Part shown: positions 3,529 to 10,526 of the stretch, one piece after another
How the letters are laid out: every line of letters begins with the position of its first letter
Position numbering within the stretch: the first letter of the stretch is position 1
NCBI GenBank assembly: GCA_037446215.1
Contig: JBBIJB010000076.1
Location: 1-10,526, forward strand
Length of the DNA stretch: 10,526 bases
Origin: Armatimonadota bacterium
GTDB taxonomy: Bacteria > Sysuimicrobiota > Sysuimicrobiia > Sysuimicrobiales > Humicultoraceae
Direction: 5' to 3'
Notes under the pieces: generated by a model
Seen by the model: only the letters and a program-made list of their open reading frames with translations
Told to the model about the DNA's origin: nothing
Database searches by the model: none
Translations under genes and position numbers: made by a program

Positions 3529-4176
3529 TCACTCTTCGACTACGAAATCAAACAGCAGTAGGCCGGCAGTAACAAAGAGTATATCAAAGAGGAACATCAG
3601 CTTCAATTGCGGCCCGATCGCCGGAAGCGGCAACCCGTCTACGATTCCGGCCGTTGCGCCCACCGCGGCGATCACGAGGGGGAGCGTCGTGGGCAGCATC
3701 AGGATAGGGAGCAGGGCTTCCCGAAGCCGGGCTTGAACGATCAGGCCTCCAAAGAGCGTTCCCGCTGCCGCAAGCCCGACCCCGCCCAGCGCCAGCGGGA
3801 GCAGCAGGGCTCCAAGCCGCCCCCAGATCGCCTCCGTGAAGAGCGCGCCGAAGAGGGGCAGCGAGAACAGCTGCACCACGGTGAGGCCGACCCAGTTGGT
3901 CAGCGCCTTGGCTGCGAAGACCGCCGAGCGATCGATCGGGGCCATCAGGAGCCCGGTCAGGTGATCCTGCTCTATCGCGAACGCCCTCGTGAACCCGAGC
4001 GTGGCGGCGAAGGCATAGGTGACCCACATCGCCGCGGGTGCGCCGCCGGGACCCGACTTGACGGCTCCCAGGACGATGACGAGGAGCAGTGCGAGCAGCC
4101 CCATTGTCGTGAGGATCTCGCGGGTGCGCCACTCCAGGCGTAGGTCCTTGGCGACGAGAAGGCGGATTACGCTCAC
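3529..4176 (-). CDS. ccmB: Heme exporter permease CcmB
   Basis: KDLRLEWRTRE, L.GLLMAP.DR, REALLPILMLP..LP.VIAAV motifs and hydrophobic throughout. Start placed at GTG 4176, which overlaps the ccmA TGA; the track start is 4197. Confidence 0.92.
   Translation of the reverse strand: MSVIRLLVAKDLRLEWRTREILTTMGLLALLLVIVLGAVKSGPGGAPAAMWVTYAFAATLGFTRAFAIEQDHLTGLLMAPIDRSAVFAAKALTNWVGLTVVQLFSLPLFGALFTEAIWGRLGALLLPLALGGVGLAAAGTLFGGLIVQARLREALLPILMLPTTLPLVIAAVGATAGIVDGLPLPAIGPQLKLMFLFDILFVTAGLLLFDFVVEE
3578..3606 (-). promoter_or_regulatory. Putative internal sigma70 promoter for ccmCDEF within the ccmB 3' end
   Basis: Minus strand TTGAAG (3606-3601), 17-nt spacer, TATACT (3583-3578) with a TGn extended -10. 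Locally AT-rich island about 70 nt upstream of ccmC. Confidence 0.65.
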
Positions 4177-4886
4177 CGCCTGCCCTCGTGGAACCACGCG
4201 GCCAGGCGTGCCTCATCGAGGCGGTCGGGTTCCATGACCTCGGTCAGGCGTCCGTCGAGGAGGACGGCTACGCCCGTGGCCAGGGCGCGCACCTCGGCCA
4301 GGTCGTGCGAGGTGAATATGATCGTCCGCTCTCCAGCCGTGCCCTCGCGCAGGCTGGCCGTCAGCCGCTCACACGCGCCCACGTCCAGGCCGGTATAGGG
4401 CTCGTCGAGGATGAGCAGCTCAGGGCCGTGGAGCAGCGCCCGTGCCAGGTTGACCTGCTGGCGCTGCCCCCTGGAGAGCACTCGGGCGCGCCGCCCAGCC
4501 AGGCCCGCCAGGCCGGCTCGCGCCAGCACGTCACCGGCGTGTCTGGGCGGCAGGCCGTAGAGGCCCGCGAAGAAGCGCAGGTTCTCCTCGACCGTCAGGC
4601 TCTCGTAGAGGAGCGACTCGTGGGGCAGAAGGCCAATCCGCCGCCTGAGTTGGGGCGCAGGGACGGCCGGGGCGCCGAAGAGCGACACCACGCCGCGCGT
4701 GGGCCGGGTCAGTGTGGCGATCAGCCGAAGCAGCGTGGTCTTGCCCGACCCGTTTGCCCCCAGCAGGGCGATCGCCGCCCCTCTTCGCACGCGAAGATCG
4801 ATGCCGCGCAGCACGGGAGTGTAGTCGAACGCCTTGACCACCCCGTCCATCTCGATCACCGGGGAGTGGGCGCAGGGCCTGCTCAC
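4173..4886 (-). CDS. ccmA: Heme ABC exporter ATP-binding protein CcmA
   Basis: Walker A GANGSGKTT, signature LSRGQ, Walker B LILDEPYTGLD, H-loop TSH. Directly upstream of ccmB. Confidence 0.92.
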   Translation of the reverse strand: MSRPCAHSPVIEMDGVVKAFDYTPVLRGIDLRVRRGAAIALLGANGSGKTTLLRLIATLTRPTRGVVSLFGAPAVPAPQLRRRIGLLPHESLLYESLTVEENLRFFAGLYGLPPRHAGDVLARAGLAGLAGRRARVLSRGQRQQVNLARALLHGPELLILDEPYTGLDVGACERLTASLREGTAGERTIIFTSHDLAEVRALATGVAVLLDGRLTEVMEPDRLDEARLAAWFHEGRR

Positions 4887-6481
4887 GGACGGACCGCCCC
4901 GGCATCAGCATCTCCTGCGGCCAGGGCGTCGACGAGCGCCTCGACCGACTCGACAGGGTGCAGCAGGAACGGGTAGCCTCTGTAGTCGATGGCCTCCGCC
5001 TCGGCCTGGCGGCGCTCCGCCTCCCTCAGCTCGCGCGCGGCCTCCTGGAGTCGCTCAGAGACGGCGGGCTGCAGCTCGAGGTTGATCTCGCGGATGCGCC
5101 CCGTGACCTCCCGCCGCTGCCGCCTGGTCATCTCTGCCGCGCCTTCGAGCCTTCGGATCAACTCCCACTTCTCGTCTGTCAGGGCCCGATACCAACCCTC
5201 GCCCTCGGCCAGGAAGCGATCCGGGTTGTGCTGGAGGTCCAGGTGAAGCCGCCGCAGCCGCTGCAGATCGCCCTCGTCCGGCGTTCGGGAGCTAAAGGGA
5301 AGGAATAGCGTCGCCGTGGCCACCGAGTAGGCCGGGGGCTCGATGCCGAAGAAGCGGCGGATGATGGCATCGGTCGCGCGATCGTACCGACCGCCGCCGA
5401 CCCCGTGTATGAACAGATCGGCCAGGGCAAGCCGGAGGAACGCGGTCAGTGAAACGGCCCTGGGGCGGATCGCCATCGCCTTGAGCCCGGGCGCGTCTGG
5501 ATCGTCGGGCACGTTGCCGAGCTCCTGCCCGTTTGCCCAGAAGCGGCCGTCCTCGAGGTCGACATAGAGGGGCGTGCGGACTCCTCCGTGGATCAGCCAG
5601 AACGGGGCCTCGACGAGAGAGCCGGCCACATCGAGGTCGGGAAACGGCTGAGCGCCGGTCCGGATCCCGTGGCGGAGGCGGTACTCGGACAGCGCGGCAT
5701 TGTGTACCCCGGCGAACCGCTCGGCCTCCCGGACTATCGAGAGCACGAAGGTTCGGAAGGCCGAGGTACGGGCGATCCACGAGACCGGCACCTCCACGTA
5801 GGGCCTCCGTCCCTCCAGCCGGCGCCTGGCCGCCGTGACCGCGCCGGACAGGCCGTGGGCGCGCGTCGGAGGGGGCGCGTCCCTTGTTGCGGACCAGGCA
5901 GAGGCGATGGCCTCCTCGCCGAGGCCTTCCAAGCAGTCGTCCACCTCCCGGACGAACCGCCTCCACCCCTCCTCGGAAGTGGCCGCCATCAACTCGAAGG
6001 GAACCTCGGGCTCTGCGCCGACGAGCCGCACCCGGTGACGCCGCAACCTGCCATCTCGGGCCGGCACCTCTGCGACCACCTCCTCGGAGGCGTCGCTGTC
6101 GACGACGACGCTCACCCCGGAGCCGTCCGGCGGAACCAGCCGGGCGAGTGAGAGATGCTTGATCCAGATCCCTGGATGAACGAGGAGCGGCTGGTGGCCG
6201 GTACAGATCAGGAGGCCGTTCCCGCCCGGGACGAACTCCACGCCAAGCCCCTCGGTGTACTCCACGCCCAGGGCGGCTATCTCGATGCGCGCCCTCCGGC
6301 GCAGCTCGGCCAGCAGGACTGAGCCGATCCGGAGGCCGGGCGCCTCGAGGGCTTTCCTGTTGGAGGCTGCCATCCCGTGCCAGAGCGAGAAGGTAGGCGT
6401 CGCAAAGGCCGACGGCGAGGCTTCCGGAATCCCCGCCTCCAGATCTAACCCGAGCGCCGTGCCCTCACCGTCTCCGGTCAC
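4883..6481 (-). CDS. Uncharacterised 532-aa protein; putative WbqC/BshC-like aminoacyl ligase or transferase
   Basis: Long ORF with GTGA overlaps at both ends. Motifs TGHQPLLVHPGIWIK, VVDSD, RPRA, LFIHGVGGGRYD and a C-terminal helical/coiled-coil region. CDS status is secure; the function is inferred. Confidence 0.7.
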   Translation of the reverse strand: MTGDGEGTALGLDLEAGIPEASPSAFATPTFSLWHGMAASNRKALEAPGLRIGSVLLAELRRRARIEIAALGVEYTEGLGVEFVPGGNGLLICTGHQPLLVHPGIWIKHLSLARLVPPDGSGVSVVVDSDASEEVVAEVPARDGRLRRHRVRLVGAEPEVPFELMAATSEEGWRRFVREVDDCLEGLGEEAIASAWSATRDAPPPTRAHGLSGAVTAARRRLEGRRPYVEVPVSWIARTSAFRTFVLSIVREAERFAGVHNAALSEYRLRHGIRTGAQPFPDLDVAGSLVEAPFWLIHGGVRTPLYVDLEDGRFWANGQELGNVPDDPDAPGLKAMAIRPRAVSLTAFLRLALADLFIHGVGGGRYDRATDAIIRRFFGIEPPAYSVATATLFLPFSSRTPDEGDLQRLRRLHLDLQHNPDRFLAEGEGWYRALTDEKWELIRRLEGAAEMTRRQRREVTGRIREINLELQPAVSERLQEAARELREAERRQAEAEAIDYRGYPFLLHPVESVEALVDALAAGDADAGAVRP

Positions 6482-7161
6482 ACCAGGCCGTCCCAGCGGG
6501 CCACCCCGATCTTCTCCCGGCAGACGAACGCCTCGCCGAAGCGTCGGCCAATCAGGCGGCCCCAGTAGCGGTTGGTTGCCTTTATCGCCTCCAGAACGCC
6601 CGCGTTGCCCCTGGCCTCGTTGAACTGCGATCCGTAGGCGGCCACGGCGGCCATCTTGGTCTCGATGTGGTCGGAGATGTCCGTGACGAAGGATGGTTCG
6701 ATGTGCAGCCGGTAGTGGGTGGAGAAGAAGTGGTAGATGCGCCGTGGGTAGTGGGGCTCTCCGCGCATCCCCGTCTTGGTGTACTTCGCGGTGAACCTGG
6801 CGGCCTCGCAGATCGCGGCGGCGGCGATGTGATCGGGATGCGCGTCCACCCAGTACGGAACGAAGAGCACCTCCGGACGCACCTCTCGGATCACCTCCGC
6901 CACCAGCGTACGCGCCTCAACGGTGTCCTGCAGGAACCGGTTGGGAAGCCCCAGGGTTACCCTGTCGCGGATGCCCAGCAGCCTCGAGGCCTCGGCGGCC
7001 TCGGCCGCCCTCAGCTCCGGCGAGCCCATCGGCGTGGGCTCACCGTCGGTCAAATCGCAGAGTGACACCTCGTGGCCCTGCGCTATGAGCAGGCAGACCG
7101 TGCCGCCCATCGCTATCTCGATGTCATCCGGGTGGGGGCCTATTGCGAGGAACCGCGCCAG
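6478..7161 (-). CDS. bshB1: PIG-L/LmbE family Zn-dependent GlcNAc N-deacetylase, BshB1-like; probable CTG start
   Basis: In-frame extension of track ORF 6478..7110 gives (L)ARFLAIGPHPDDIEIAMGG with the HPDD metal motif. Also DLTDGE, R..EA..A..LLG, HPDH and SQF. The symbol reflects the family; the substrate is uncertain. Confidence 0.85.
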   Translation of the reverse strand: MARFLAIGPHPDDIEIAMGGTVCLLIAQGHEVSLCDLTDGEPTPMGSPELRAAEAAEASRLLGIRDRVTLGLPNRFLQDTVEARTLVAEVIREVRPEVLFVPYWVDAHPDHIAAAAICEAARFTAKYTKTGMRGEPHYPRRIYHFFSTHYRLHIEPSFVTDISDHIETKMAAVAAYGSQFNEARGNAGVLEAIKATNRYWGRLIGRRFGEAFVCREKIGVARWDGLV

Positions 7162-7871
7162 CGCTTCACCTCTTCCTCGAGTACCTTCTCGTAGTATCGC
7201 AGGCGTGCATCCACATCGTCGAGGCCGCCCCAGAACCTGCGGTCCGGGTTCTTGTAGATCCTGGGCGTGGCGAGCTCCACGACCCTCAGCCCGGCTCGGG
7301 CGGCTTGTATCCAGACCTGCAGCGGCATGCCGTAGGAAGGCTCGGTGAGGGCGAAGGAGCGCAGCGCGTCGGCCCGGTAGGCCTTGAAACCGCAGAATGC
7401 GTCTGTTATCGCGTAGCCCGTCAGGGCTATCAGCCTCGCCGTTATCTCCTCGTTGAGGCGCCGGCGATCGGGCGGCGGCTCGTCGCCGCCCATTCCGGGG
7501 TCGAGATAGCGGCTGCCGGACACCACATCCGCGCCGTCCAGCGCCTCCATGAACTCGGGGATCTGCCCTGGCACGTGCTGCTCATCGCAGTCTATCGTGA
7601 CCACGGCGTCGTAGCCGTGCGCCGTAGCGTATCCGAAGCCGTCGATCAGCGACTGCCCGTACCCCTCGTTTTGCGCGTGCGTGAGAACCGTGACCTCGCG
7701 GTAGGCCCGCAGTATCTGCGGGGAGCGGTCGGTCGAGCCGTCGTCCACCACAAGCACGTCCGCCTTCGGGGCGGACGCGCGGACCTGCCGGACAACGCTG
7801 TCCAGGCTGGCCTCCTCGTTGAAGAGGGGGATGACCACGATCGCTCGGCGCATCGACTCCGAAGAACGCAC
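7140..7871 (-). CDS. Glycosyltransferase family 2 (DPM1/polyprenol-phosphate glycosyltransferase-like)
   Basis: VVIPLFNEE, VVDDGSTD, H..N.GYG, DxD motif TIDCDEQH, VSGSRY, TDAFCGFKAY. AAGGAG lies 7 nt before GTG 7871. No C-terminal TM helices. Confidence 0.92.
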   Translation of the reverse strand: MRSSESMRRAIVVIPLFNEEASLDSVVRQVRASAPKADVLVVDDGSTDRSPQILRAYREVTVLTHAQNEGYGQSLIDGFGYATAHGYDAVVTIDCDEQHVPGQIPEFMEALDGADVVSGSRYLDPGMGGDEPPPDRRRLNEEITARLIALTGYAITDAFCGFKAYRADALRSFALTEPSYGMPLQVWIQAARAGLRVVELATPRIYKNPDRRFWGGLDDVDARLRYYEKVLEEEVKRWRGSSQ

Positions 7872-7896: not shown

Positions 7897-8586
7897 TCAG
7901 AGAAGCTTCACTCCGTTGATCTGCAGCTTGAAGTCGCAGCCGAGGAATCGGGCGGCCCTCCGGCACATCAGCATCCTGTCAAGGAAGATCTCGAAGTACT
8001 CCATGACCTGGGAGATCGTCGTGTCGATCGTGAGCTCCAAGGTGAGGGTCTTGGCCGTCTCGTCCACCCGAAGGAACGAGTGCTCCACGGCGTAGTTGAC
8101 CCTGTCGTGGATGTCAAAGGCCGTGGTGTCGGGGTTACGCACACGCGTCCGGTGGACGTCGGACTTGTCCGCCAGGATGACCGCCGCGCCCGCGGCGCTG
8201 ACCGCCTCCCCGTGGCGCTCCTCGTGATTGCCGATCGCCCCCATGACGATGGCTCGCTCCTCGGCGCCCATTCCCAACCGCGCCAGTATCCGGTCGGCGA
8301 GCAGCGCCGCGGCCTGCTCGTGGTTCTCGCGACTGACCATGTTGCCGAGGTCGTGCAGGTAGGCCGAGATCGCCGCCAGCTCCGCGGTTCGCTCGTCCAT
8401 GCCCAGGCGGCGCAGGACGTTCCCGGCGATGCTCGCGGTGAGGTTCGCGTGCCTAAGTCCGTGCTCGGTGTAGCCGATGACCCCCGTGTACTCGTTGGCC
8501 TTGGCCAGGAATACGTCCACCTCACCGTCGCGCCTGACGTCGTCAAGCCCTGGCCCAGGAGGGGGCGCGGCTCTCTCTTCTCTCAC
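7897..8586 (-). CDS. HD-domain metal-dependent phosphohydrolase
   Basis: EHGLRH, YLHDLGN, GNHEE, ILADKSDVHRTRVR, DIHDRVNYAV. Purine-rich RBS (GAGAGGAAG) before the GTG. Confidence 0.9.
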   Translation of the reverse strand: MREERAAPPPGPGLDDVRRDGEVDVFLAKANEYTGVIGYTEHGLRHANLTASIAGNVLRRLGMDERTAELAAISAYLHDLGNMVSRENHEQAAALLADRILARLGMGAEERAIVMGAIGNHEERHGEAVSAAGAAVILADKSDVHRTRVRNPDTTAFDIHDRVNYAVEHSFLRVDETAKTLTLELTIDTTISQVMEYFEIFLDRMLMCRRAARFLGCDFKLQINGVKLL

Positions 8587-8620: not shown

Positions 8621-8911
8621 CTACTCCTCGCCCTTCGAGCGGACGTAGCTGACCGATCCGCGGTCCGCCTTGACCCTGACGTTGGGCGCCAGGTCGAGAT
8701 TGAGGACGTCGTCCTTGATCTCCGCGATCGTCGCGTGGATCCCGCCCAGCGTGACCACGCGGTCGCCCCTCTTGAGCGCCGAGAGCATCTGCTGTCGCTT
8801 GCGTGCCTGCGTACGCTGCGGCCTGATCATCAGGAAGTAGAACACCGCGAAGATCAGAACCCAGAGCACGATAACGGGAACCGGCGACTGGCTTGCCTGC
8901 AATGCCTGCAT
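8621..8911 (-). CDS. yajC: Preprotein translocase subunit YajC
   Basis: TM followed by FYFLMIRPQ and LKRGDRVVTLGGI. GAGGAGG RBS upstream. Follows tgt as in the conserved arrangement. Confidence 0.96.
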   Translation of the reverse strand: MQALQASQSPVPVIVLWVLIFAVFYFLMIRPQRTQARKRQQMLSALKRGDRVVTLGGIHATIAEIKDDVLNLDLAPNVRVKADRGSVSYVRSKGEE

Positions 8912-9028: not shown

Positions 9029-10156
9029 TCACCAGGAGGTGGAGTAGAGCTCCAGTGTCCCTTCCTTCCAGGAGGCGTAGCGCCCTTCGCGCAGCGCCTC
9101 CCTCGCCTCCTCCATCAGCCGGCCGATGAACCACAGGTTGTGATAGGTGGCAAGCCTGGGGCCGAGCATCTCGTCGGCGGCGAAGAGGTGCCTCAGGTAG
9201 GCGCGCGTGGTGCGCCCGCAGACGCTGCACGCGCAGGCCGGGTCGGGAGGCGAGAGATCGGCCCTGAACCTGGCATTTCGCAGGTTGATCCGTCCCTCCC
9301 GGGTGAAGAGCATCCCGGTGCGCGCCACCCGCGTCGGCAGCGCGCAGTCGAAGAGGTCTATGCCGCGGGCGATCCCCTCGAGGAGATCGGGCACCCCACC
9401 GACGCCCATCAAGTAGCGCGGGGCACCGGTGGGGAGTTCGGCGACGACCGCCTCGATGGCATCGAGCGCGGCCTGCTTGGGCTCACCCACCGAGAGGCCG
9501 CCGATCGCGTATCCTGGGAAGCCCAACTCCGCGGTGCGGCGGGCGGCCTCGGCCCGAAGCGCGGGCTCGACTCCCCCCTGGACGATGCCAAAGAGATCTC
9601 CTCCCCCGACCTCCCGCCTCCGCGCTTGGGAGCGGGCAGCCCACCGCAGCGTCCGCTCGAGCGCGTCGCGCGCCTCGCCCGGCCCGTGAGGGTATCCCAG
9701 GCAGACGTCCAGCGGCATGACGAACTCCGACCCCAGGGCTCGCTGGATGTCGACCACGCCCTCAGGGGTGAACCTGTGTGGGCTGCCGTCGAACGGCGAC
9801 CTGAACTCTACCCCGCCGTCGTCCACGCGGCGCATCCGGGAGAGGCTGTGGACCTGGTACCCGCCGCTGTCGGTCAGGATGGGACCGACCCATCCCATGA
9901 ACCGGTGGAGCCCGCCCGCCGCCCCGACCACCTCCAACCCCGGCCTGAGGTAGAGGTGGAAGGCATTCGCAAGGATCATCCGGGCGCCGGACTCCGCCAC
10001 CTCTTCGGGCACCAGTGACTTGACCGTAGCATTGGTGCCCACCGGCATGAAGGCCGGCGTCTCTACGGCACCCCTGTGCGTGGAGAGACGCCCGGCCCGC
10101 CCGGCCGAGCGCGGCCCCGGCCGGCCGGCTTCAAACTCAAAGGGCTTGTGATCTAC
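9029..10156 (-). CDS. tgt: tRNA-guanine(34) transglycosylase (queuine tRNA-ribosyltransferase); start codon uncertain
   Basis: VETPAFMPVGT, ILANAFHL, TDSGGYQV, PLDVC, GIVQGG, GGLSVGE, DLFDCALPTR and Zn site CACSVC...H. Homology extends upstream of the first ATG (10048) to about 10140. Confidence 0.95.
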   Translation of the reverse strand, partial: VDHKPFEFEAGRPGPRSAGRAGRLSTHRGAVETPAFMPVGTNATVKSLVPEEVAESGARMILANAFHLYLRPGLEVVGAAGGLHRFMGWVGPILTDSGGYQVHSLSRMRRVDDGGVEFRSPFDGSPHRFTPEGVVDIQRALGSEFVMPLDVCLGYPHGPGEARDALERTLRWAARSQARRREVGGGDLFGIVQGGVEPALRAEAARRTAELGFPGYAIGGLSVGEPKQAALDAIEAVVAELPTGAPRYLMGVGGVPDLLEGIARGIDLFDCALPTRVARTGMLFTREGRINLRNARFRADLSPPDPACACSVCGRTTRAYLRHLFAADEMLGPRLATYHNLWFIGRLMEEAREALREGRYASWKEGTLELYSTSW

Positions 10157-10526
10157 GGATAGATCCCCCTGATCATCAGCGCGTTGGCCACGCGCTCCAC
10201 GGCGCGCTGCATTGCGGCAAGCCGGAGCGAGATCCCCTGCTCGTTGGCGTAGTGCAGCACGTCATGGACGCTGCGGACCATGACCTGCTCCAGCCGGCTG
10301 TTGACGTCGTGCTCGCTCCAGAACAGCGACTGCAGATCCTGGACCCACTCGAAGTAGGAGACGATCACGCCACCGGAGTTGGCGAGGATGTCCGGCAGCA
10401 CGACAACCCCTTTGGACTCGAGCACCGCGTCGGCGTCCGGTGTGGTCGGCCCGTTCGCGCCCTCCACGATCACCCTGGCCCTTATCCGGTCCGCGTTCTC
10501 ATCGGTGATCTGCCCCTCGATCGCCG
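10153..10526 (-). CDS. gdhA: Glu/Leu/Phe/Val dehydrogenase (glutamate dehydrogenase), C-terminal part; starts outside the window
   Basis: AIEGQITDENADRIRARVIVEGANGPTT, PDILANSGGVIVSYFEWVQD, C-terminal RGIYP. Confidence 0.93.
   Translation of the reverse strand, partial: AIEGQITDENADRIRARVIVEGANGPTTPDADAVLESKGVVVLPDILANSGGVIVSYFEWVQDLQSLFWSEHDVNSRLEQVMVRSVHDVLHYANEQGISLRLAAMQRAVERVANALMIRGIYP

Follow-up and report, generated by a model that had tools for sequence, protein, structure and literature searches.

Genes at the locus

The window, which is the whole stretch of 10,526 nucleotides analysed here (contig JBBIJB010000076.1, C76 in our numbering, from an Armatimonadota bacterium placed by GTDB in the Sysuimicrobiota), has a G+C content of about 68% and belongs to a host genome of 2.16 Mb in 149 contigs, judged to be 91% complete. 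All the real genes of the window are carried by the minus strand (Table 1). Three of them, which overlap, encode a family 2 glycosyltransferase (GT2), a deacetylase of the PIG-L/LmbE family and BshB1 type, and an unannotated protein of 532 residues, named X532 here; these three genes are the module considered in this work. An earlier note on this DNA, made from the sequence alone, had described them as overlapping genes for a GT2, a deacetylase with HPDD and HPDH motifs and a 532-residue protein, an arrangement that has been confirmed on the minus strand, with the start of the deacetylase gene corrected.

The GT2 gene starts with GTG, with an AAGGAG Shine-Dalgarno sequence 7 nt ahead, and its 3' end overlaps the deacetylase gene by 22 nt. 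The deacetylase stop codon and the GTG start codon of X532 overlap in the tetranucleotide GTGA, and an overlap of the same type joins the X532 stop to the ccmA start (4883-4886). These tight junctions fit translational coupling, and a translationally coupled operon is the best explanation for the GT2, deacetylase and X532 genes. The four public runs that contain this DNA come from one study and consist entirely of DNA reads, with no RNA run among them.

The open reading frame listed for the deacetylase begins at ATG 7110, within the HPDD region, and the frame stays open upstream, where no ATG, GTG or TTG precedes the HPDD motif in this gene. The codon CTG 7161 aligns with the Met/Val start (MARIL...) of eight homologues, and a GAGGTGA-like ribosome-binding site lies 5 nt upstream of it. 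Both features point to a rare CTG start at this position, so that the gene likely extends over 6478-7161.

Table 1. Position of the genes predicted in the window
Feature	Position	Strand	Remarks
Glutamate dehydrogenase fragment	10153-10524	minus	
tgt	9029 to about 10108	minus	
yajC	8621-8911	minus	
HD-domain gene	7897-8586	minus	PF01966, E 3.3e-5; 25 nt upstream of GT2
GT2 glycosyltransferase, 243 residues	7140-7871	minus	PF00535, E 1.5e-27
BshB1-type PIG-L/LmbE deacetylase, 227 residues	6478-7161	minus	PF02585, TIGR04001; probable CTG start at 7161
X532, unannotated protein, 532 residues	4883-6481	minus	Remote structural homologue of BshC (predicted model)
ccmA, first gene of ccmABC(D)EF	4173-4886	minus	ABC_tran, E 4.1e-30; TIGR01189, 127.5 bits (cut-off 131.6)
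ccmB, ccmC, ccmE, ccmF		minus	After ccmA

Relatives of the three proteins

Two known thiol pathways offer a comparison for the module. Bacillithiol, which is found in Bacillus, Deinococcus-Thermus, Chlorobiota and Bacteroidota, is made in the same order of glycosyl transfer (BshA, a family 4 glycosyltransferase and GlcNAc-malate synthase), de-N-acetylation (BshB1, of the LmbE type) and ligation (BshC, needed for the addition of cysteine to GlcN-malate). The mycothiol pathway of Actinomycetota (MshA, MshA2, MshB, MshC and MshD) also combines transfer of N-acetylglucosamine (GlcNAc), a deacetylase of the PIG-L family and a ligase resembling class I synthetases.

No Pfam or NCBIfam family was found for X532, and the same applies to 30 of 30 relatives, even at E ≤ 10. 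Its AlphaFold2 model (mean predicted local distance difference test, pLDDT, 90.9; predicted TM-score, pTM, 0.86) contains long C-terminal helices at residues 429-446 and 453-498, and the Foldseek search carried out with this model has revealed a lone match at E ≤ 0.001, the BshC of B. subtilis (4wbd), over the full length (E 3.2e-11, probability 1.00). The alignment of both structures with VIA-align, in which residues 12-528 of the model are superposed on residues 13-536 of the 4wbd chain, gives a Z score of 23.9 for 449 aligned residues, with a root-mean-square deviation of 5.9 and 10% identity. Tyrosyl- and glutamyl-tRNA synthetases came next, with Z about 10, followed by MshC (Z 9.7) and cysteinyl-tRNA synthetase (CysRS, Z 9.5), so that X532 resembles the mycothiol ligase only at the level of the general fold. 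The model shares the whole BshC fold, with the Rossmann-like core, the inserted subdomains and the C-terminal domain of long helices. The modelled fold places X532 in a separate, deeply diverged family of the BshC lineage, and this kinship strengthens the analogy with a three-step pathway.

A profile alignment with hhalign, for which the BshC alignment was built from 12 genomes, pairs TGHQPxLxHPGIWxK of X532 with TGQQAGxFTGPLYTIYK of BshC, VDSD with SEDHD, HGVGGGRYD with AGPGEIAYY and PPxY..TATL with MPxIYPRxSxTL. Where BshC has the motif GQQ..GGPLY, X532 has GHQP..HPG, and it differs from BshC at nearly all the BshC-invariant positions. These different residues at shared motif positions would argue for a changed substrate or chemistry in X532. 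Histidine and glycine are found in X532 at the position of the HIGH loop of synthetases, but not in BshC. In the ESM Atlas the nearest clusters to X532 were unnamed planctomycete families, and clusters with some PF10079 members appeared only at scores of 0.85 and 0.79, which are considered as leads only. The label 'WbqC-like' that the earlier note had given to the 532-residue protein found no support, since none of 30 family members matched WbqC at E ≤ 10.

The GT2 carries the motifs DDGSTD and DCDxQH, the latter being invariant across 24 sequences except at residue C95, which is nearly so. It has the GT-A domain and the DxD...QH signature of the polyprenyl-phosphate glycosyltransferases (DPM1/DPMS, GtrB, ArnC and PpgS), which are its best neighbours in sequence and fold, but it misses all their equivalog cut-offs: the best NCBIfam matches were the dolichyl-phosphate hexose transferase (69.9 bits versus 375), ArnC (55.3 versus 529) and PpgS (55.1 versus 370). 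A Foldseek search with its AlphaFold2 model (pLDDT 93.2) returned ArnC, DPMS and GtrB with E values of about 5e-15, and GpgS, a member of family GT81, with E about 1e-11 (TM-score 0.71-0.74). GpgS resembles the GT2 in size and as a soluble GT-A enzyme, and it glycosylates a small hydroxy-acid; it is a retaining enzyme that uses UDP-glucose as donor, and its similarity to the GT2 in sequence is marginal (21.7 bits for the GpgS model, cut-off 262). No transmembrane segment was detected in the GT2, whose top 19-residue hydropathy window reached 1.13, with none above 1.6, when the CcmB control gave 2.71. Short DPM1-type enzymes may depend on a membrane partner. From its sequence, the GT2 is predicted to be a soluble GT-A enzyme, and its DPM1-type signature presumably implies an inverting mechanism.

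With such neighbours, the module might also be read as a route to a lipid-linked aminosugar, in which the GT2 would form polyprenyl-phosphate-GlcNAc, the PIG-L enzyme would deacetylate it on the lipid, X532 would modify the amine, and the unit would be flipped to decorate the envelope. A GT2 paired with a deacetylase is the logic of ArnC/ArnD and of PpgS-type pathways, a known way to a lipid-linked aminosugar, and PIG-L, the family namesake, deacetylates GlcNAc-phosphatidylinositol on the lipid. The module deacetylase belongs to a family different from that of ArnD and NaxD, and we know of no ligase in polyprenyl-phosphate aminosugar pathways of the ArnD or NaxD type. We consider this lipid route unlikely: a transmembrane or strongly hydrophobic segment is absent from the GT2, the deacetylase and X532 alike, the CcmB control being clearly positive; the equivalog cut-offs of the polyprenyl-phosphate enzymes are missed widely, and the soluble GpgS fits about equally well; neither a flippase nor a GT-C gene is conserved beside the module; its carriers have very different envelopes; and the deacetylase passes the BshB1 cut-off.

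The deacetylase matches PF02585 (E 3.4e-17) and contains both HPDD and HPDH, the metal-site motifs of the LmbE fold, which are invariant across nine aligned sequences. With its full N-terminus it scores 207.3 bits with TIGR04001, the BshB1 equivalog model (cut-off 182.5). Automatic gene callers would truncate this protein, and the form starting at ATG 7110 falls under the cut-off (175.6 bits). The four other cluster-linked deacetylases tested, all from other phyla, also pass TIGR04001 with 185-203 bits. Among the enzymes above the cut-off, the X532-linked ones score lowest. The models for BshB2, MshB and Mca remain far under their own cut-offs (32-35 bits versus 224-277 for MshB and Mca), a difference from the mycothiol pathway.

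Conservation of the module and its complementarity with bshA and bshC

Relatives of X532 are numerous. One search returned 377 at E ≤ 1e-3, and the 120 that were listed are all unnamed or 'hypothetical'; an exhaustive profile search gave 3707 representative clusters at E ≤ 1e-3, of which 1970 remained at E ≤ 1e-30. In a collection of species-representative genomes, 345 stretches encode a relative, and 79 of these loci were fetched for the analysis of the neighbourhood, 75 of them having enough DNA ahead of the X532 homologue (1.5 kb or more) to be judged. An orthologue of the GT2 (36-75% identity) lies directly upstream of the X532 homologue in 75/75 loci, and the deacetylase gene is located between both in 60. 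The clustering in other genomes that the earlier note had made a test of its proposal is thus borne out. The linkage in all 75 loci across phyla rules out chance adjacency of GT2 and X532. According to the record titles, the carriers belong to Sysuimicrobiota/CSP1-3 (among them Candidatus Fervidifonticultor, whose lineage has been confirmed), Coriobacteriia and other Actinomycetota, Clostridia, Caldisericota, Coprothermobacterota and Planctomycetota.

Open frames of 725-830 residues suggested deacetylase-ligase fusions, and this candidate was rejected in the four loci examined, where the X532 frame merely stays open across a deacetylase that is encoded in another frame. No longer X532 relatives indicative of fusions were found when searched for, a result of little weight.

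Genes flanking the module vary by phylum. The gene ccmA is found directly downstream of X532 in 25 of the 39 CSP1-3-like loci that could be judged, compared with 0 of 32 in the other groups; it is context, outside the conserved module, and a functional tie of the module product to cytochrome c maturation is conceivable from this arrangement. The HD-domain gene precedes the GT2 gene in 17 of 37 CSP1-3-like loci and is kept in close relatives only; a phosphatase role for its product, in the event of a phosphorylated acceptor, would be purely speculative. A gene of the OsmC type, transcribed in the same direction, lies directly upstream of the GT2 gene in 11 of the 12 judgeable Actinomycetota-labelled loci (L046-L069; for example, L064 3910-4473) and also in one of two Clostridia-labelled loci. 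In the Coprothermobacterota-labelled locus L082 (1263-4006), malic enzyme and both subunits of a class I fumarase are encoded directly upstream of the GT2 gene, a single case that is compatible with malate as acceptor. No inositol-phosphate logic of the mycothiol kind is evident in the module.

The planctomycete locus L085 carries, about 320 nt downstream of the X532 homologue, a gene for a GNAT acetyltransferase (7924-8472) that is absent from the other loci examined and that recalls MshD of the mycothiol pathway. In the window itself, ccmF is split into two frames, 696-2141 (PF01578 and the first half of CcmF_C) and 101-688 (the second half). A stretch of 34 nt (726-759) is missing from the contigs of three of the four public runs, the halves of ccmF join in frame without it, and the related locus L007 has a continuous ccmF of 651 residues. 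From these comparisons the split is read as a strain-specific insertion of 34 nt or an assembly artefact.

The canonical thiol genes, whose presence elsewhere in the genome was a further concern of the earlier note, were searched for in the host genome. No match to the BshC hidden Markov models (TIGR03998; PF10079 and PF24850) was found at E ≤ 0.01, the best score with the BshA model (TIGR03999) was 102.1 bits (cut-off 273.7), and the only match to MshC (TIGR03447; 277.4 bits versus 485.1) was a CysRS-like gene on another contig. Neither GshA (PF04262) nor GCS2 (PF04107) was found. The place of BshA, a GT-B enzyme of family 4, is taken in the module by a GT-A enzyme of family 2.

Within the phylum of the window, 90 of 94 genomes (53 of 54 of high quality) encode X532, counts that include two genomes flagged as unpublished (G017 and G025) and without which X532 is found in 88 of 92. 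Canonical BshC is found in none of the 94. BshA exceeds its cut-off in only one of them (G023, 521.8 bits), a genome that is 59% complete and lacks BshC, and contamination or gene transfer is the likely origin of this gene. BshC was also absent from the ten X532 carriers of other phyla, and overall none of 101 X532-bearing genomes has it. The phylum of the Clostridia-labelled carrier G099 was sampled with 81 genomes, of which 22 have BshC and two (G099 and G129) have X532, none of them having both. BshB1 above its cut-off occurs in 23 of the 81, namely 21 of the BshC genomes and exactly G099 and G129. The GT2 subfamily of the module is found in these two genomes only (327-329 bits; next best, 134.7 bits). 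BshA above its cut-off occurs in 15 genomes, all of them BshC-positive, and in neither G099 nor G129. The canonical set is not fully complete either in this sample, since one BshC genome lacks BshB1 and seven of the 22 lack BshA above the cut-off (G105, G119, G128, G141, G142, G148 and G175), which may reflect incompleteness or the replacement of BshA by another glycosyltransferase. The X532 module and bshA/bshC are therefore complementary in their distribution.

A quick maximum-likelihood tree of 50 deacetylases, built on translations of high-scoring segment pairs, places the 22 canonical BshB1 proteins on one side of a branch with an SH-like approximate likelihood ratio (SH-aLRT) support of 100. 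The window deacetylase and 25 other rows from X532 genomes all fall outside this clade and do not group with the BshB1 proteins that accompany BshA and BshC. The proteins of G099 and G129 are also outside the clade although both genomes share their phylum with the canonical BshB1 proteins, which argues that the type of deacetylase follows the type of ligase, not the organism. Annotation pipelines will label such enzymes 'bacillithiol biosynthesis deacetylase BshB1' in genomes without bshA and bshC.

These distributions also bear on whether the product might be authentic bacillithiol. In that case the GT-A enzyme would be a retaining GlcNAc-malate synthase, and X532 would do the work of BshC despite its divergence. 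The deacetylase passes the BshB1 cut-off, BshB1 accompanies only BshC or X532 in the sample of 81 genomes, retaining hydroxy-acid GT-A enzymes such as GpgS are close structural neighbours of the GT2, and genes for malate-producing enzymes adjoin it in L082. The GT2 has, however, the sequence signature of the DPM1-type group, which we take to be inverting, the linked deacetylases form a branch apart from canonical BshB1 and have the lowest passing scores, X532 is unlike BshC at nearly all its invariant positions, and searches of the host genome for Bdr, BrxA/B and YtxJ were negative. We give authentic bacillithiol a low probability.

Proposed pathway and product

The earlier note had proposed that the three genes follow the logic of the bacillithiol and mycothiol pathways, and this proposal is supported by the clustering of the genes, the lack of the canonical ones and the BshC fold of the X532 model. 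The reading that we prefer, to which we give about an even chance, is a three-step pathway of the bacillithiol type, assembled from partly different parts, that makes a soluble cysteinyl-glucosaminide related but not identical to bacillithiol. A family 2 GT-A enzyme would stand in place of BshA, and a deeply diverged enzyme of the BshC lineage would be the ligase. In the first step, the soluble GT2 would take UDP-GlcNAc as donor and glycosylate a small anionic molecule, for which malate and other hydroxy- or phospho-acids are candidates, and the linkage would be beta if the enzyme inverts, like most GT2 enzymes, as its DPM1-type signature suggests. The BshB1-type deacetylase, assigned to its family by sequence, would then strip the N-acetyl group from this putative substrate. 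Finally X532, from its predicted fold, would acylate the amine exposed by deacetylation, and cysteine is the likeliest amino acid to be added.

Several observations weigh against this cysteinyl-glucosaminide pathway. None of 30 members of the X532 family matches PF10079, PF24850 or PF08889, even at E ≤ 10; the profile search of the PDB with X532 gave no meaningful match (best E 0.83); and the hhalign match to BshC is weak (probability 8%, E 0.0043, 304 collinear columns), sequence homology between both families being only suggested. The statement in the earlier note that the third gene is not a recognisable BshC holds at this level of sequence and fails at that of the fold, given the match to 4wbd. 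The closest relatives of the GT2 in sequence and fold are polyprenyl-phosphate transferases. The deacetylase gene is not located between GT2 and X532 in 15 of the 75 loci, 11 of them Planctomycetota-labelled, the others being L028, L070, L077 and L081. The four planctomycete genomes with the bare pair that were searched encode a BshB1 above the cut-off elsewhere, and a fifth genome with the bare pair, G186, which holds L070, does not. In the host genome, the best match to YpdA/Bdr scored 47.6 bits (cut-off 339.9), and BrxA/B and YtxJ gave no match. The absence of these redox partners carries little weight, because, among the control genomes of bacillithiol producers, some of the models match no more than one or two, and the host genome is 91% complete. 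Related genomes are not independent, so that the counts given above overstate the support, and both the amino acid and the acceptor are proposed by analogy only.

The identity of the amino acid bears on a further possibility, that the group which X532 joins to the amine is not cysteine but another amino acid or a carboxylate, and that the product is a non-redox aminoacyl-glucosaminide serving as compatible solute, metal ligand or cofactor precursor. GpgS-like chemistry leads to solutes. No data point singles out cysteine, the bacillithiol-type redoxins and reductase were not found in the host genome, and the conserved residues of X532 differ from those of BshC. On the other hand, its solved relatives by fold, BshC and MshC, both serve cysteinyl-glucosaminide thiol pathways, as a passage of a review describes (PMC5790435), the host genome lacks the other thiol pathways searched for (GshA, GCS2 and MshC), and the gene found beside the module in Actinomycetota-labelled loci is of the OsmC peroxidase type. 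A product without a thiol appears improbable to us on balance.

Returning to the preferred thiol pathway, the module product would be an undescribed aminoacyl-glucosaminide, probably a thiol, by analogy with the known systems. Its function, with a putative redox role, would be that of a central small thiol or cofactor in phyla that lack the genes for glutathione, mycothiol and canonical bacillithiol. A more specific proposal, which we hold tentatively and with less than even confidence, is that this cysteinyl-glucosaminide thiol, with a linkage or aglycone unlike that of bacillithiol, acts as the principal redox buffer in the cytoplasm of Sysuimicrobiota, many Planctomycetota, Coriobacteriia, Caldisericota and Coprothermobacterota.

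No description of a GT2/BshB1-type/X532 module was found in the literature searched, and the main text of the CSP1-3/Sysuimicrobiota papers does not mention bacillithiol, mycothiol, glutathione, thiol or deacetylase. A passage of Hiras et al. 2018 (PMC6282198) names Planctomycetes, Verrucomicrobia, Spirochaetes and other major lineages as lacking a documented or predicted low-molecular-weight thiol. A 2025 survey (PMC12719100) used BLAST and scored nothing short of a complete BshA/B/C set, an approach that would miss a variant with GT2 and X532. The X532 family is large and unnamed, its genes always adjoin a member of one GT2 subfamily, and a BshB1-type deacetylase accompanies them, which makes the module a concrete and testable candidate for the missing thiol chemistry.

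The BshC reaction itself has never been reconstituted in vitro, according to a passage of the 2018 review (PMC5790435), and X532 would be a second, independent route into this unsolved reaction. It may be more tractable than BshC for solving how cysteine is activated by BshC-type ligases, since it keeps the histidine and glycine of the HIGH-loop position. The GT2/BshB1-type/X532 module is a widespread variant of the bacillithiol-type pathway, so far without a name, and, if the proposed product is right, it would provide a thiol for lineages in which none has been known or predicted.

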